Shown one piece after another: positions 9,511-56,018 of a DNA stretch of 64,000 bases. The notes under the pieces are model-generated. The model ran no database searches, was not told the DNA's origin, and saw only the letters and a program-made list of their open reading frames with translations. Within the stretch, counting starts at the first letter, position 1; each line of letters opens with the position of its first letter. The stretch comes from Escherichia coli O127:H6 str. E2348/69. Its GTDB lineage: Bacteria > Pseudomonadota > Gammaproteobacteria > Enterobacterales > Enterobacteriaceae. The position numbers were made by a program, and so were the translations under genes. Location: the NCBI RefSeq assembly GCF_000026545.1, contig NC_011601.1. The stretch is one strand, 5' to 3'.

Positions 9511-12500
9511 TTACTCAACAGGTTGCGGACGCGCAGGAGCGGCAGAGGCATGATGCGTTGCCGTATGACCACCTGCGGCACCTTTGCCTTCGAAGGCAAA
9601 AGTAGGGCGCTGCCAGTCACTGTGACGCGGTGCCTCCGGAACATATTCCGGTGCCGGAGCGCGCGTCATTGGCGCGGTAGCGTGGTTATGCTCAACGGTG
9701 ATCTCTGGTTCAACCGCGGCTACCGTTTCAACTTCTGCTGCGACTTCAGCGACGACTGGCGCGGCAGGTTGAGCAACAACTTCAGGTTCAGCAACCACAA
9801 CCTCAGCAGTTTCGGCAACTTCTTCAATATCTGCCGTCTCTTCCTGCGGTTCAACTACCGGTTCTGCGTGTTCTGCAACTTCCTGGGCTACGGCAACATC
9901 AGACTCGGTAATCACCTGCGGCTGTTCAGTTACCGCGGCGGCAATTACTACAGGATGCGTCGTTTCAACCACTTCCGGTTGCGGTTCGGCAATCTGAACG
10001 GGGGCTTCTACGACTTCAGCCACTTCTTCAACAACTGGCGCGCTAACAACCGGTTCGACAGCGGCGGCGACAGGGACCTCAGTCACCATCGGCTGCACTT
10101 GTACTTCTTCCTGTTCGCGCTGCTCTTCGACCTGTACATCTTGCGGACGTACAATTGGATAGCGGATCCAGACTTTGCCAGAGGCCAGTTCCGGAGATGC
10201 GCAAGCTACGGTCAACGGCATTGGCGATTGGGTTGGATAACGCTCGTCACGATAGCGACGACGACGCTGACCACTCACGCGCAGGTGACGAGGCGAGCGG
10301 CGAGAACGACGCGGCATGCCACCGTTGTCACGGTTATCGGCATTGTTCTCTTCTTGCTGTTCTGGTGCAGCTTGCGCTACGACTGGCAGCGGGACTTTCA
10401 CCAGTTCTGTGCGTGGAGCTGGCGCTTCCTGAACAATTGGTTCGGCAGCGACAGTTTCTTCAACCACCGGTGCGACTACCGCTTCTTCGGCTACGCTTTG
10501 CTCGTAACGCACTTTCTGATTGAGCTGACGCTGTTTACGACGCGGCTGAACCGGACGTACACGTTCTTCCTGTTCGGTTTCCTGAACAGATTGCTCTTCA
10601 ACATTCAGCGCCTTCGCTTCTTGTTGCGCCTGACGTTTATCATCGTTACGGCGGCGGCTACGTTCACGACGCGGCGCTTGCTGCTCGTCGGTGGTACGCG
10701 CTTTTTCCGTTACCTCAGCCTGCTGACGGCTCTCACGCGTCTCGACAGTCTGCTGCTGTGCCTGGCGACGATTACGACGGTTTTCTTCGCGATTATCGCT
10801 GCCTTCTGTACGTTCACTACGGGAGTCGCGGCGCTCATTACGGTCACGGCGGTTGTTCTGACGAGGCTTGCGACGATCCTGTTGACGTTCCGGTTTCGCT
10901 TCTGCTTTCGGTGCTGGTTGCTCGGCCGGTTTGGTTTCTTCACCACCGCTGAACAGCGCTTTCAGTGCGCCGAAGAAGCGGCTCAACAACCCTGGTTGTG
11001 CAGGAGATGCTGGTGTTGCCGTTGCAGCTTTAGGTGCTGGGGCTACAACAGGCGCGGCAGGTTCAGCTGGGGTTGGAGCTGGCGGCACATCCGGCATGGC
11101 AAAGGTTGCCAGCGCAGGTTGTTCCGGACGCTTACGTTCAGCGAACTCTTCTTCAGACGGCAGCGCCATCGCTTCTTCATGCAGCTTCGGCAGCATGTAG
11201 CTTAAGGTTGGAGTTTCTTCCCCTTTACGCACGCGCAGCACATGGTAGTGCGGGGTTTCCATCTGATCGTTTGGCACAATCACACAGCGCACGCCGTCCT
11301 GACGAGTTTCAATCGCATTCACTGCAGAACGTTTTTCATTCAGCAGGTAAGACGCGATTGGCACAGGAACAATGGCGTGAACTTCCTGAGTGTTCTCTTT
11401 CAGCGCTTCTTCTTCGATCAGACGCAGAATAGAGAGCGACAACGATTCGTTGTCACGCACGGTACCGGTACCGGAGCAGCGCGGGCAGACGTGATGGCTG
11501 GATTCACCCAGTGATGGGCTCAGACGCTGACGGGACATTTCCAGCAGGCCAAAGCGAGAAATATGGCTGATTTGAATACGCGCACGGTCCTGACGCACCG
11601 CTTCACGCAGACGATTTTCTACCGCACGCTGGTGGCGTACTGGCGTCATGTCGATGAAGTCGATAACAATCAGGCCGCCGAGGTCACGCAGGCGCAGCTG
11701 ACGAGCAATCTCATCGGCAGCTTCGAGGTTGGTGTTAAACGCGGTTTCTTCGATATCGCCGCCGCGGGTCGCGCGTGCGGAGTTGATGTCGATGGCGGTT
11801 AACGCTTCGGTGCTGTCGATAACAATGGAACCACCAGATGGCAGACGAACTTCACGCTGGAAGGCGGACTCAATCTGTGACTCAATCTGGTAGTGGCTGA
11901 ACAGCGGGATCTCGCCGGTGTACAGTTTGATTTTGCTGCTGAAATCCGGGCGACCTAATGCAGCGATATGCTGGCGTGCCAGTTCGAGCACTTTCGGGTT
12001 ATCGATAAGGATTTCGCCGATATCCTGACGTAAGTAATCGCGGAATGCGCGAACGATGACGTTGCTCTCCTGATGAATCAGGAACGGAGCTGGGCGGCTT
12101 TCAGCGGCTTTTTTGATGGCTTCCCAGTGTTTCAGACGGAAGCTTAAATCCCATTGCAGCGCCTCAGCAGATTTGCCGACGCCAGCGGTGCGCACGATAA
12201 GCCCCATGCCTTCCGGCAGTTCAAGGCTTGCCAGTGCTTCTTTTAATTCGGTACGGTCGTCGCCTTCGATACGACGAGAAATGCCACCCGCGCGCGGGTT
12301 GTTCGGCATCAGAACCAGATAGCTACCCGCCAGACTGATAAAGGTGGTTAATGCCGCGCCTTTGTTGCCGCGCTCTTCTTTATCGATCTGAACAATGACT
12401 TCCTGACCTTCACGCAACACATCTTTAATGTTGGGACGACCATGAGCACTGTAGTTAGCAGGGAAATATTCGCGGGCAATTTCTTTTAGTGGGAGGAAAC

Positions 12501-36543: not shown

Positions 36544-37176
36544 TTATTTCAGCAGTTCCGGCCATAAACGCAAAGTCGTTCGGGCAATCTGCATCAGTTT
36601 TTCCAGCGATGCACCTTCGCGTGCGCTGATCGACATCCCCTGAATAATACAATTAAGGAATTCTGCCAGATGCGTCACGTCACAGTGGGGCGGGATTTCC
36701 CCGCGCGCTTGTCGTTGACATAAAAACTGCTGCAAAGTGCGCTCTTGCATCGCATGGCGTGATTTCAGCGTATTGGCGATATCTCCAGAATCCGGGGAGA
36801 GGGTGGTGCAGTTGTTGATCATGAAGCAGCCAGCCGGAGTGTCTTTGCTGGTAAAGCAGTTGGCGATGGCAGCAAAATAGTCAGCCAGCGCAGACTCCAC
36901 GCTTTTCTCTTCACAAAACAGCTGTGCTTCATGCTTGGCGGCAAAACGATCGATATAGCGGTCGAGTACGGCGCGGAATAACCCCTCTTTGTTGGTAAAT
37001 TCCGCGTATAGCGTGGGCGCTTTAGCTCCGGTCGCTTCAACGAGGTCCGCAAGAGAAGTCGCTTCATAACCGTGCTGCCAGAACAATTTCATGGCCTTAT
37101 CAAGCGCGGCATCCCTGTCGAACACTTTTGGGCGGCCACGGCTTTTTTTTACACATTGTGTTGAGTCAGTTGCCAT
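36544..37176 (-). CDS. comR: TetR-family repressor ComR (YcfQ)
   Basis: 210 aa from MATDSTQCVKKSRGRPKVFDRDAALDKAMKLFWQHGYEATSLADL (TetR HTH). Confidence 0.85.
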   Translation of the reverse strand: MATDSTQCVKKSRGRPKVFDRDAALDKAMKLFWQHGYEATSLADLVEATGAKAPTLYAEFTNKEGLFRAVLDRYIDRFAAKHEAQLFCEEKSVESALADYFAAIANCFTSKDTPAGCFMINNCTTLSPDSGDIANTLKSRHAMQERTLQQFLCQRQARGEIPPHCDVTHLAEFLNCIIQGMSISAREGASLEKLMQIARTTLRLWPELLK

Positions 37177-37331
37177 GATGCCGTTGTACCTGGTGACTGT
37201 GAATGAAAGGTTATTATAAAAATAATCACCTCCGTTCACCAGTCCACAAACCATAAAAATAATTGCTTTCTATTTAACTGAAATTTAAAGATTTTTAAAT
37301 TAATTAATGATTGTTATAAAAAATATCTTGT

Positions 37332-37349
37332 ATGTGATCCAGATCACAT
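37332..37349. promoter_or_regulatory. perfect palindrome ATGTGATC-ca-GATCACAT in the comR-bhsA intergenic region (candidate operator)
   Basis: 8-bp inverted repeat with 2-bp spacer, contains two GATC sites; positioned upstream of bhsA. Confidence 0.35.
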
Positions 37350-37416
37350 CTATCATTTAGTTATCGATCGTTAAGTAATTGCTTGCGACGTCATTCATCT
37401 GCATAAGGCCACTATT

Positions 37417-37674
37417 ATGAAAAACGTAAAAACCCTCATCGCTGCGGCGATTTTAAGCTCAATGTCATTTGCCAGCTTTGCGGCTGTCGAAGTTCAGTCA
37501 ACGCCAGAAGGCCAACAAAAAGTCGGTACTATCAGTGCTAACGCGGGGACAAATCTGGGATCGCTGGAAGAGCAGCTGGCGCAAAAAGCGGATGAGATGG
37601 GCGCAAAATCTTTCCGTATTACTTCTGTAACCGGTCCGAATACCCTCCATGGAACAGCAGTAATTTATAAATAA
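37417..37674 (+). CDS. bhsA: stress-induced outer-membrane protein BhsA (YcfR, DUF1471)
   Basis: 85-aa ORF with signal peptide. Confidence 0.9.
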   Translation: MKNVKTLIAAAILSSMSFASFAAVEVQSTPEGQQKVGTISANAGTNLGSLEEQLAQKADEMGAKSFRITSVTGPNTLHGTAVIYK

Positions 37675-37713
37675 GTATTAACCCTCATTAATGCCTGCTA
37701 CTGCTGATTTTTT

Positions 37714-37747
37714 CCCCGCGACATGCCGTGTCGCGGGGATTTTTTTA
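37714..37747. terminator. bidirectional rho-independent terminator between bhsA and ldtC
   Basis: Stem ccccgcgaca/tgtcgcgggg flanked by T-runs on both sides. Confidence 0.65.
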
Positions 37748-53546: not shown

Positions 53547-56018
53547 TTAAAAATCAGCCTGATTCGGGATCAGTTTTTGCCAGATAGCTGAAACGTATTT
53601 TGCCTGGTGACGAGCGTCATCAAGTGCATTATGGCGCTCACCTTCGAATGGAATAGCCGTTCTGGCATCGAAGTCTATGGCTTTCCCCAGCTCAACGATT
53701 GTGCGTACATCGCGATCGTTGTAGTAACGCCACGGGCAGGGGATCCCCTGCCGTTCGTATGAACGGCGCAAAATCGTGTTGTCGAAGTTGGCTCCATTTC
53801 CCCAAACCTGAACAAAAAATTCACCGGAGTTTTCGTCGATAAATTCCCGCAATTGTAACAGTGCATCATCTAACGGGATTTCATCGGTCATAATGGCAGA
53901 TTGCGCTTCGCGTGATTGCTTAAGCCACCATTTAATGGTGTCCCGATCAATGACTCCGCCAGCAGTTTCCAGATCGATAGTCTTACTAAATTCCGGTCCC
54001 ATATCTCCGGTTTGCGGATCGAAAAATATTGCACCTATTGAGATGATCGGGGCATCAGGATTTTTTCCCATGGTTTCAAGGTCGATCATTAGATGGTCAC
54101 ACGTCCTGCTGGTGGATGTGATTTCGTGATGACCGTTCACCTTAATTGAGTGATCTGCCGTCTCGCCAGTCTCATTATCGCTATTGTGATGCTGATTGCC
54201 GCCAGTGTTCTCCTTGTGTGGATGCTCAGCGCCTTCCATTTCCTCCGGATCATCTTCCTGAACTTCAACCTGATACTCTTCATCGAATGTTTCCTGGTAT
54301 GTTGCGTCGCCCATCACCGCACCACAATCAGGGCAGTTGCCGCCGCCGGTCTGACCGCAGGCGGTGCAGACTTTTTCCACTTCCTGTTGCACTACTGGTT
54401 CAGGTAGTTTCGTTTCTGGCTCGTTTTGTTGCGTATTTGGGCTGTTTTGTTCCGCTTTCTGGTCGTTCTGTTCCGTTTCTTGCTGGTTCTGGTTCACAGA
54501 ATCGCGGGTTTCAATCCCCTTCACCCATTTCGGATCATTCGGATCGCTAATCCCTGCAACAAATTCACCACGTGATACTGCAAGCAGTTCATCGGCGTCA
54601 GGCTGGCTGATATTGGCTGCCTGCATAATTTTGTTTACTTCGTCAGCGGTAACTTTTACCGGCCCTGGTTGTGCGGTCGTGTCAGATGCACCAGTATTTT
54701 GTTGTGAACCTGAGTATGTACCGTTTTTGCGGGCGAAATATTCTTCTTTCGTGATTTCAGTAGCCCCTGCAGCCAGTGCCTTATCCAGACCAGAAAGTTT
54801 GTTTGCGCGACCGTATTTTTCGCTATCCTTGTCGGTGAAGAGGAAGTAGAACGGCCCTTCACGCTCTACAGATGGTTCGACTTCCACTTTGCATTCGGTT
54901 TTTTCGTTGTCCGGAATTGCCGTTTCCACTGCATCAGTTTCTGGTACTGGCGACGAGAGAGTATCAGTTGCGCTCTGATTTGTTCCTTCATCTTCAAACA
55001 CGCCCTTTGTAGTCAGGTATTCAGTAATGTATTTGTTCAGTGCCACAGGGTCTTTGTGAATGTCGATCGGACGTTCACGGACAAGGCCAAAAATAGTCTG
55101 GCGGTCGTAGCGAAGGGCATCAGGCTGTTTGCGCATTGATGCCGAGATACGCTTCCAGTCTTCGCGGTAGTTGTCGATAACTTCATTTTTTGCCCAGCGA
55201 TGGATGCTGCCGTCAATGTTTCCGGCATCCACATCACCAGGCCAGAGAGCGTAGGCCAGTTCGTCATCCAGTGTTTTCCATGTCTGCTTGTATTCGCGAT
55301 GAGTGGCAGCAATGACCGGGCTGATTTTTCCTGTTGAATTTTCAGTGTTCTGTTGATTGGCTCTGGCGCGGGCGAGATCAACAACAGACGTGTATTTTCC
55401 GGTTTCCTTGCGTTCACCTTCGCGACGTTTTTTCCAGATGCGCATCTCTGCCTGAATTTCGGGCCATTTGGCACCAGGCTTACATTTATGCTTAACCCAC
55501 CCGATGGCATGCAGCTTAAGCTCCGGATACATGGCGTTAACTTCTGGCATTTTCATCAACGCTTCAACGATATGTCCGTCGAATGTTGCCATGTCTTCCT
55601 GCAACAATTCCTGTGCGCTAATCACCATATCAACGGTGATGTTTTCACATGTGTCGAACTTAACCATGACAGCGTTCTGTACTTCAGGGGCCAGCTTGTC
55701 AAAAGTGACGTTCATCGGATCGGATTCAGTCTCAACCGGGACAAAAGAAGCAGAATCCTCATCCCAGCGGTTTTCCTGCATATATTCAGCATCCCATGAA
55801 TCGAGGGCAGGGCGGGGTATGCCAGGTTTATCCTCGCAGACAATAAATTTATAAGCGCAGTCCTGAGCAGCCGGATAATGTTCCAGGAATTGCCAGTGAA
55901 ATTTTGCTCGAGCACGGCGTTCGTCGCCAGCTTCAATGGCTGTGGCTACAGCCACAGCGCCTTCTTCCCTTGTTGCCAGTTCGTCAGGAATAGCGGCGCA
56001 AATAAAGACTTTACTCAT
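53547..56018 (-). CDS. prophage exonuclease with C-terminal DnaQ-like (DEDDh) 3'-5' exonuclease domain
   Basis: ORF 53547-56054 (alternative start MSKVF at 56018); C-terminus has DLETMG and HNALDDA motifs; central Gln/Asn/Glu-rich linker and a Cys4 cluster CTACGQTGGGNCPDCG. Confidence 0.7.
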   Translation of the reverse strand: MSKVFICAAIPDELATREEGAVAVATAIEAGDERRARAKFHWQFLEHYPAAQDCAYKFIVCEDKPGIPRPALDSWDAEYMQENRWDEDSASFVPVETESDPMNVTFDKLAPEVQNAVMVKFDTCENITVDMVISAQELLQEDMATFDGHIVEALMKMPEVNAMYPELKLHAIGWVKHKCKPGAKWPEIQAEMRIWKKRREGERKETGKYTSVVDLARARANQQNTENSTGKISPVIAATHREYKQTWKTLDDELAYALWPGDVDAGNIDGSIHRWAKNEVIDNYREDWKRISASMRKQPDALRYDRQTIFGLVRERPIDIHKDPVALNKYITEYLTTKGVFEDEGTNQSATDTLSSPVPETDAVETAIPDNEKTECKVEVEPSVEREGPFYFLFTDKDSEKYGRANKLSGLDKALAAGATEITKEEYFARKNGTYSGSQQNTGASDTTAQPGPVKVTADEVNKIMQAANISQPDADELLAVSRGEFVAGISDPNDPKWVKGIETRDSVNQNQQETEQNDQKAEQNSPNTQQNEPETKLPEPVVQQEVEKVCTACGQTGGGNCPDCGAVMGDATYQETFDEEYQVEVQEDDPEEMEGAEHPHKENTGGNQHHNSDNETGETADHSIKVNGHHEITSTSRTCDHLMIDLETMGKNPDAPIISIGAIFFDPQTGDMGPEFSKTIDLETAGGVIDRDTIKWWLKQSREAQSAIMTDEIPLDDALLQLREFIDENSGEFFVQVWGNGANFDNTILRRSYERQGIPCPWRYYNDRDVRTIVELGKAIDFDARTAIPFEGERHNALDDARHQAKYVSAIWQKLIPNQADF

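Follow-up and report, generated by a model that had tools for sequence, protein, structure and literature searches.

The window, i.e. the whole analysed stretch of 64,000 nucleotides from Escherichia coli O127:H6 str. E2348/69, contains the divergently oriented genes comR and bhsA. Both are supported by open reading frames and by the RefSeq annotation, with an internal start in the case of comR. comR, also named ycfQ, is located on the minus strand at 36544-37176 and encodes a TetR-family protein of 210 amino acids, which is a copper-responsive repressor of bhsA. The regulated gene bhsA, also named ycfR or comC, occupies 37417-37674 on the plus strand. Its product is a DUF1471 outer-membrane multiple-stress protein of 85 amino acids, and the gene belongs to the most strongly stress-induced genes, with an induction of about 270-fold by H2O2 in Salmonella. 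In K-12, a small RNA named bhsB is annotated, overlapping the 3' end of bhsA and an intrinsic terminator. The bhsB sequence region is also present in the window at 37647-37746, with the terminator hairpin at 37713-37739.

The gap between comR and bhsA measures 240 bp and harbours the palindrome ATGTGATCCAGATCACAT at 37332-37349. The palindrome covers the positions 68-85 bp upstream of the bhsA ATG, and its centre (37340.5) is located 76.5 bp 5' of this start codon. A preliminary description of the DNA had presented it as ATGTGATC-CA-GATCACAT, an exact 8-bp inverted repeat containing two GATC sequences. The sequence confirms both statements, as the 8-bp arms match exactly around a 2-bp spacer and the GATCs start at 37336 and 37342. 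Another intergenic GATC starts at 37366, giving three in the window, compared to four in K-12. The stretch 37244-37252 is polymorphic between strains: K-12 and W3110 carry CCAGATCCC, which includes an extra GATC, and the window carries CCACAAACC. Among 5,426 complete E. coli genomes, 5,423 contain the 81-bp core promoter region, and in 5,218 its sequence is the same.

Perfect 8-bp inverted repeats with a spacer of 0-6 bp are common in the window. In total, 30 scoring positions (approximately 20 distinct repeats) were counted in the 64 kb, compared to 8.7 in Markov-1 random sequence. For this reason, no significance was derived from generic palindrome statistics. Further perfect inverted repeats with arms of at least 8 bp are found at 9583-9600, 20192-20213, 27653-27674, 53735-53752, and 55939-55958, among others; TTTGCCTTCGAAGGCAAA and GGCAGGGGATCCCCTGCC are two examples. 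The comR-bhsA spacer itself includes a second inverted repeat, AATTTAAAGATTTTTAAATT at 37282-37301, which was dropped as a candidate, since the repeat is not conserved in the alignment.

The core of the palindrome is an exact copy of TGTGA-N6-TCACA, the consensus core of the cAMP receptor protein (CRP). The 22-bp CRP-cAMP binding site GTATGTGATCCAGATCACATCT extends over 37330-37351, with the 16-bp core at 37333-37348 and the same centre as the palindrome. By chance, 0.06-0.09 exact cores would be expected in 64 kb, and one was found; even with up to one mismatch allowed, 37333-37348 is the sole match in the 64 kb. Compared with the 22-bp CRP consensus AAATGTGATCTAGATCACATTT, the 22-mer agrees at 18 of 22 positions. 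A search of the window with this 22-bp consensus at up to three mismatches gave no match, because the flanks contribute a fourth mismatch. For a quantitative comparison, a symmetrised CRP weight matrix was built from 106 other ChIP-seq sites of enterotoxigenic E. coli (ETEC) H10407, as listed in Table 1 of that study, with the bhsA locus left out. The palindrome scores 21.35 of 21.84 bits with this matrix, which places it at rank 1 of 107, above all 106 training sites (median 12.9). The second-best position in the window reaches 12.05 bits.

Published data already document the palindrome as the site of CRP in the comR/bhsA spacer. CRP ChIP-seq in ETEC H10407 (Haycocks et al. 2015) yielded a high-confidence peak for ycfQ/bhsA, and the 16-mer listed for it, TGTGATCTGGATCACA, is the reverse complement of 37333-37348. 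In vitro, CRP genomic SELEX with K-12 (Shimada et al. 2011) identified ycfQ<>bhsA among the targets between divergent genes, at the resolution of the spacer and not of the base pair. In addition, another article (PMC5521740) credits Zhang et al. 2007, second-hand, with a gel shift of CRP on DNA from upstream of ycfR. The locus is absent from the main text of both a CRP ChIP-seq paper on enteroaggregative E. coli (EAEC) and the ROSE in vitro transcription paper. In a published cAMP dose-response microarray, the log2 fold-change of bhsA went through 0, -0.24, -0.42, -0.96, -1.09, -1.66, -1.74, and -1.94, which corresponds to a drop of the mRNA by about 3.8-fold with rising cAMP. Part of this cAMP effect could be indirect. 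A classification based on EcoCyc/RegulonDB assigns bhsA to a type-2 incoherent feed-forward loop together with ComR, and in such loops CRP acts as a repressor. The published ycfQ(comR)/bhsA site and the palindrome thus share the same sequence and the same direction of regulation, with CRP being negative on bhsA. The core, the matrix score, the binding reported in vivo and in vitro, the conservation profile described below, and the cAMP response all agree with a CRP site.

The position of this site within the bhsA promoter can be derived from a published transcription start site (TSS). In the supplementary TSS table of Kim et al. 2012, b1112 bhsA has its start at 1168242 (NC_000913.2), based on 145 reads, and the sequence from -50 to +1 is listed along with it. 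This 51-mer matches 37313-37363 of the window exactly. The start (+1) is the A at 37363 on the plus strand, followed by a 54-nt leader. A start near 37363 was also predicted from the conserved hexamers, with which the published TSS agrees. The start A follows a T (37362-37363), and bhsA is mentioned 22 times in a 2015 PLoS Genetics article on primer-dependent transcription initiation (PMC4488433). For the Klebsiella ortholog KPN_01110, no TSS is contained in the searched portion of the supplement. The -10 hexamer TATCAT is located at 37351-37356 on the plus strand, spanning -12 to -7 and thus 7 nt upstream of the mapped start. Its column counts (T74 A75 T71 n A73 T75 of 75) display a TATnAT signature. 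The -35 hexamer, whose position is fixed by the published TSS, is TTGTAT in Escherichia (37328-37333, plus strand), with a spacing of 17 bp to the -10 hexamer. Most other genera have TTGACG one base further upstream (37327-37332; 60-75 of 75 per position), at 17-18 bp from the -10 hexamer.

With the start at 37363, the CRP site is centred at -22.5, and its core, from -30 to -15, fills the spacer between the -35 and -10 hexamers. This geometry does not allow class I or class II activation and is characteristic of repressors that occlude the promoter. At high cAMP levels, i.e. under poor carbon supply in the absence of glucose, a CRP dimer would occupy the site. RNA polymerase would then be excluded from the same 30 bp of the sigma-70 promoter, and the transcription of bhsA would decrease. 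Since the site sits at -22.5 and the mRNA falls with cAMP, blocking of RNA polymerase is the most likely mode of repression of bhsA by CRP. The steric exclusion itself is suggested by the geometry. Taken together, the palindrome is very probably the CRP-cAMP site of the bhsA promoter at which CRP acts as a repressor.

Shimada 2014 predicts another promoter further upstream of bhsA, TTCACC-17-AATAAT, at approximately 37235-37263. If this promoter is active, the CRP site would be situated downstream of its start, which counts against the occlusion picture. In the comR-proximal part of the spacer, ATAAAAATAAT is present twice, at 37213-37226 and 37253-37263 (37 bp apart), and both copies are conserved. 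The -10 element of the predicted promoter coincides with the latter copy. A search for start-site evidence for both copies of ATAAAAATAAT yielded none. According to the alignment, the conserved block ATTATAAAAATAAT at 37213-37226 reads TATAAT on the minus strand and is the probable -10 element of comR.

The conservation of the site was analysed in a scan with one genome per species, which comprised 80 comR loci and, after addition of the K-12 locus, 81. The divergent bhsA is kept in 74 of these 81 loci, and the genera with a divergent comR-bhsA pair include Escherichia, Citrobacter, Salmonella, Enterobacter, Kosakonia, Cedecea, Siccibacter, and Buttiauxella, among others. In all 74 other loci with the pair, the best match to the CRP core (0-2 mismatches) is found 76-84 bp 5' of the bhsA ATG. 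The matrix scores across loci range from 12.6 to 21.35, with a median of 19.5. Among 75 aligned intergenic regions, the left half-site GTGA is retained in 73-75 and the right half-site TCACA in 72-75 sequences per column; the T in front of GTGA varies (48 of 75). Four central bases vary freely, with the majority base reaching merely 41-45 of 75. This column pattern corresponds to the information profile of CRP, with constrained half-sites and a free centre, the exception being the last two central bases, GA, which are invariant. The outer A/T pair of the palindrome is not conserved (37332 is G in 60 of 75), and neither is the inner TC of the left arm. Genera other than Escherichia mostly carry TGTGACC...GGATCACA. 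As the outer A/T pair and the TC of the left arm are unconserved, Escherichia is the only genus among the sequences examined to show a fully symmetric 8-bp repeat and a left GATC. Between 37327 and 37339, Escherichia differs from the other genera in a coordinated manner, having a weaker -35 hexamer (TTGTAT versus TTGACG) and a left CRP half-site closer to the consensus (TGTGATC versus TGTGACC). This change gives rise to the perfect palindrome.

Four loci contain comR without bhsA, and in these the CRP site is gone as well, whereas the comR-proximal block ATTATAAAAATAA is kept. Likewise, the block at 37213-37226 is retained with comR in loci lacking bhsA. Because the CRP site is lost along with bhsA while the comR block stays, it is assigned to the bhsA promoter. 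The four loci, which lack bhsA together with its whole promoter, belong to Enterobacter sp. ENT03, Enterobacter sp. Bisph1, Pseudescherichia vulneris, and Escherichia sp. ESNIH1 (L058, L062, L072, and L073). Here, comR adjoins an ldtC-like gene upstream of comR (locus positions of about 2100-2500), and ComR is left without its only known target.

Next to the CRP site, a second palindrome overlaps the start of transcription. The sequence TTATCGATCGTTAA at 37361-37374 (-2 to +12) is a near-perfect 14-bp palindrome, which shares 13 of its 14 positions with the perfect form TTAACGATCGTTAA. No block of the spacer is more conserved than the 13-bp core TATCGATCGTTAA (37362-37374), which at least 73 of the 75 sequences carry unchanged; the deviants number one each at 37366, 37367, and 37369. 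An extended imperfect form covers 37357-37378 and starts exactly 60 bp before the bhsA ATG. With up to three mismatches, this downstream copy is found in 75 of 75 sequences at 26-27 bp from the CRP centre, and it is lost together with bhsA in the four loci mentioned above. A weaker copy, TTAATGATTGTTAT, is located upstream at 37304-37317 and reads TTAACGATCGTTAT in most genera. It is centred at -52.5, upstream of the -35 hexamer, and may represent a second operator. At the same mismatch limit, 59 of 75 species have the upstream copy, at a distance of 29-31 bp from the CRP centre. Owing to this fixed distance, the CRP site is flanked symmetrically by a pair of CGATCG palindromes. Both copies taken together gave 144 hits compared to 1.9 in shuffled controls, with the motif having been defined from these same sequences.

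According to a review that refers to Mermod 2012, ComR binds to the promoter of comC (bhsA), is released by copper, and shows no autoregulation. The review places the ComR site '60 bp upstream' of the gene. This statement fits the adjacent palindrome better, since the latter begins 56-60 bp upstream, whereas the CRP palindrome spans 68-85 bp. Judging by its conservation and its position over +1, beside the gene of a TetR-type repressor, TTATCGATCGTTAA is likely the ComR operator and is the best candidate in the spacer. ComR would act via this element at -2 to +12, and possibly also via the weaker copy at -52.5. In this arrangement, bhsA would be controlled by two independent repressors, CRP and ComR, on adjacent sites. 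ComR might conceivably bind to the palindrome of CRP as well.

The preliminary description had implied that the palindrome at 37332-37349 is the operator of ComR; in this reading, ComR would repress bhsA from there until released by copper. That it is a genuine operator in the bhsA promoter for a bhsA-repressing protein is upheld, but sequence, conservation pattern, and published binding identify this protein as CRP, not ComR. TetR-family repressors do bind palindromes in the promoters of adjacent divergent targets, ComR binds the bhsA promoter region in vitro in a copper-released manner according to the review, and the right edge of the palindrome, 68 bp 5' of the ATG, is near the reviewed '60 bp upstream'. 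It is nonetheless highly improbable that ComR is the cognate protein, as conservation falls precisely on the half-sites of CRP, the 8-bp symmetry is limited to the Escherichia sequences, CRP has been documented on the site in vivo and in vitro, and a better candidate lies next door at 37361-37374, with a core that overlaps +1 and is unchanged in no fewer than 73 of the 75 sequences. Wherever comR and bhsA are conserved, both arms of this neighbouring palindrome are conserved too, in contrast to those of the CRP palindrome. An activating role of CRP, either on bhsA as a class I or II activator or on the divergent comR, was considered as well. Most CRP sites activate, the palindrome sits between two divergent genes, and the ETEC ChIP-seq sites are most often found about 40.5 or 92.5 bp upstream of starts. 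Against this, the centre at -22.5 is inside the core promoter of a mapped start, the bhsA mRNA drops as cAMP climbs, and inspection of the sequence revealed no acceptable -10 element at the spacing required for a -41.5 or -61.5 arrangement. Regarding comR, the site is about 134 bp away from its probable start, and in the loop type given by the database CRP is negative on comR too. Activation at this site is accordingly given very little credence. The abundance of perfect 8-bp inverted repeats (30 positions versus 8.7 at random) would even be compatible with a functionless chance palindrome in AT-rich intergenic DNA. This explanation is refuted for practical purposes by the rarity of the CRP core in 64 kb, its conservation in 74 other loci, and the binding of CRP in vivo.

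A further explanation concerns the GATC sequences, which are substrates of Dam and could form a methylation-sensitive switch. Such a switch might alter the binding of CRP or another protein or the strength of the promoter, or protein binding might establish a heritable unmethylated state as in pap or agn43, and the switch could coexist with repression by CRP. The right-arm GATC (37342-37345) is invariant, with G75 A75 T75 C75 of 75, although its G and A (37342-37343) carry 0.11 and 0.32 bit, respectively, in CRP sites generally. The invariance of this GA in 75 of 75 sequences exceeds the usual requirement of a CRP site, which is a point in favour of such a switch. The left-arm GATC (37336-37339), which gives the arms their perfect symmetry, occurs only in the Escherichia sequences examined: 37338 is T in 26 of 75 and 37339 is C in 42 of 75, and all full TGTGATC arms belong to Escherichia according to the per-locus listing. 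Hence, only the right-hand GATC is conserved outside this genus, and the lack of conservation of the left one speaks against the switch. The presence of two GATCs follows from the near-consensus CRP sequence, as the CRP consensus TGTGATCTAGATCACA itself holds two, and the GATC content of the CRP consensus has been noted for CRP sites generally (Westphal 2016). The two GATCs are therefore part of the CRP consensus and not a separate device.

Methylation data from the literature also bear on this switch. Westphal 2016 lists 66 sites at which the methylation signal of K-12 ZK126 changes during long-term culture, and these include one non-coding bhsA GATC. Both strands of this GATC, which is one of the four GATCs of the K-12 spacer, were significant with q = 0.05-0.07 at an FDR < 0.3. 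Under H2O2, the ycfR mRNA of S. Typhimurium 14028S correlates with the fraction methylated at a GATC of the regulatory region of ycfR (R = 0.68, P ~0.05). The variable GATC could be any of the three in the spacer (four in K-12), one of which, at 37366, lies inside the candidate ComR operator. Mapping of the ZK126 positions 1072523/4 to MG1655 and W3110 with a yccS-calibrated offset produced no consistent offset, and the text of the paper names no site. For the 14028S GATC at 1,255,516, the position relative to ycfR was sought, and the supplements give no coordinates. The statistics are weak in both cases (FDR < 0.3 and P ~0.05, respectively). Methylation that rises with transcription is, moreover, what passive protection by a repressor predicts, so that the correlation need not be causal. 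One literature search for a dam-mutant effect on bhsA turned up no report of one. A Dam-sensitive switch is therefore considered unlikely, and repression by CRP at -22.5 is retained as the preferred interpretation.

Repression from within a core promoter has precedents. At gal P2 and cyaA P2, CRP-cAMP binds to a consensus-type site overlapping the -35 and -10 elements and thereby prevents the productive binding of RNA polymerase. The bhsA promoter resembles these two in that the CRP site overlaps the core promoter. It differs from gal P1/P2 in that one nearly ideal site takes up the entire spacer of the only mapped promoter, with no sign of an activated second promoter overlapping it. GATCs inside CRP sites are reportedly protected by the bound protein and thus stably or variably unmethylated, as work under the names of Wang and Church from 1992 and of Hale and co-workers from 1994 is said to have described. 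bhsA shares with this class a GATC inside a high-affinity CRP site and a time-dependent methylation of some GATC in the non-coding region. The difference is that the variable GATC of bhsA is one of several in the spacer, being either that of the palindrome or another. The operators of TetR-family repressors, such as tetO and QacR IR1, are short palindromes in the promoter of a gene that neighbours the repressor gene and is oriented divergently to it. The CRP palindrome shares this form and location. However, its conserved positions match CRP, and it is asymmetric outside Escherichia. The description of a TetR-type operator suits TTATCGATCGTTAA at +1 better.

The arrangement of the three elements also allows a more speculative interpretation. 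The two TTAACGATCGTTAA-type operators are centred at -52.5 and +5, i.e. 57 bp apart, and this spacing is fixed across genera. In most genera, a GATC is present in each of the three elements, namely the CRP site and the two flanking palindromes. CRP bends its DNA sharply. A three-site repression complex can be envisaged, in which CRP at -22.5 would bend the DNA between the two operators and thereby join two ComR dimers, with the GATCs recording occupancy. Such a complex is regarded as a rather remote prospect. If it were true, carbon status (via cAMP) and copper or oxidant stress would be integrated cooperatively. Given the conserved GATCs in all three elements, the occupancy by repressors would be written into the Dam methylation pattern. 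This pattern could in turn make the expression of bhsA heterogeneous or dependent on its history.

Compared to the known CRP site, the present analysis contributes the -22.5 geometry, obtained by combining the site with the published TSS, the top rank among in vivo sites, and the conservation in 74 other loci. The novelty beyond this is small and would reside in the bending by CRP between ComR-type operators with GATCs that record occupancy, for which the prospects are slim. If the palindrome were interpreted as an element of ComR and Dam, a CRP site that ranks with the strongest of the E. coli chromosome would be assigned wrongly. The CRP site and the putative operator at +1 are clear targets for promoter engineering. 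With regard to the physiology of the organism, catabolite signalling via a CRP site in the core promoter would hold bhsA down, and this helps to explain why the induction of bhsA depends on the medium.
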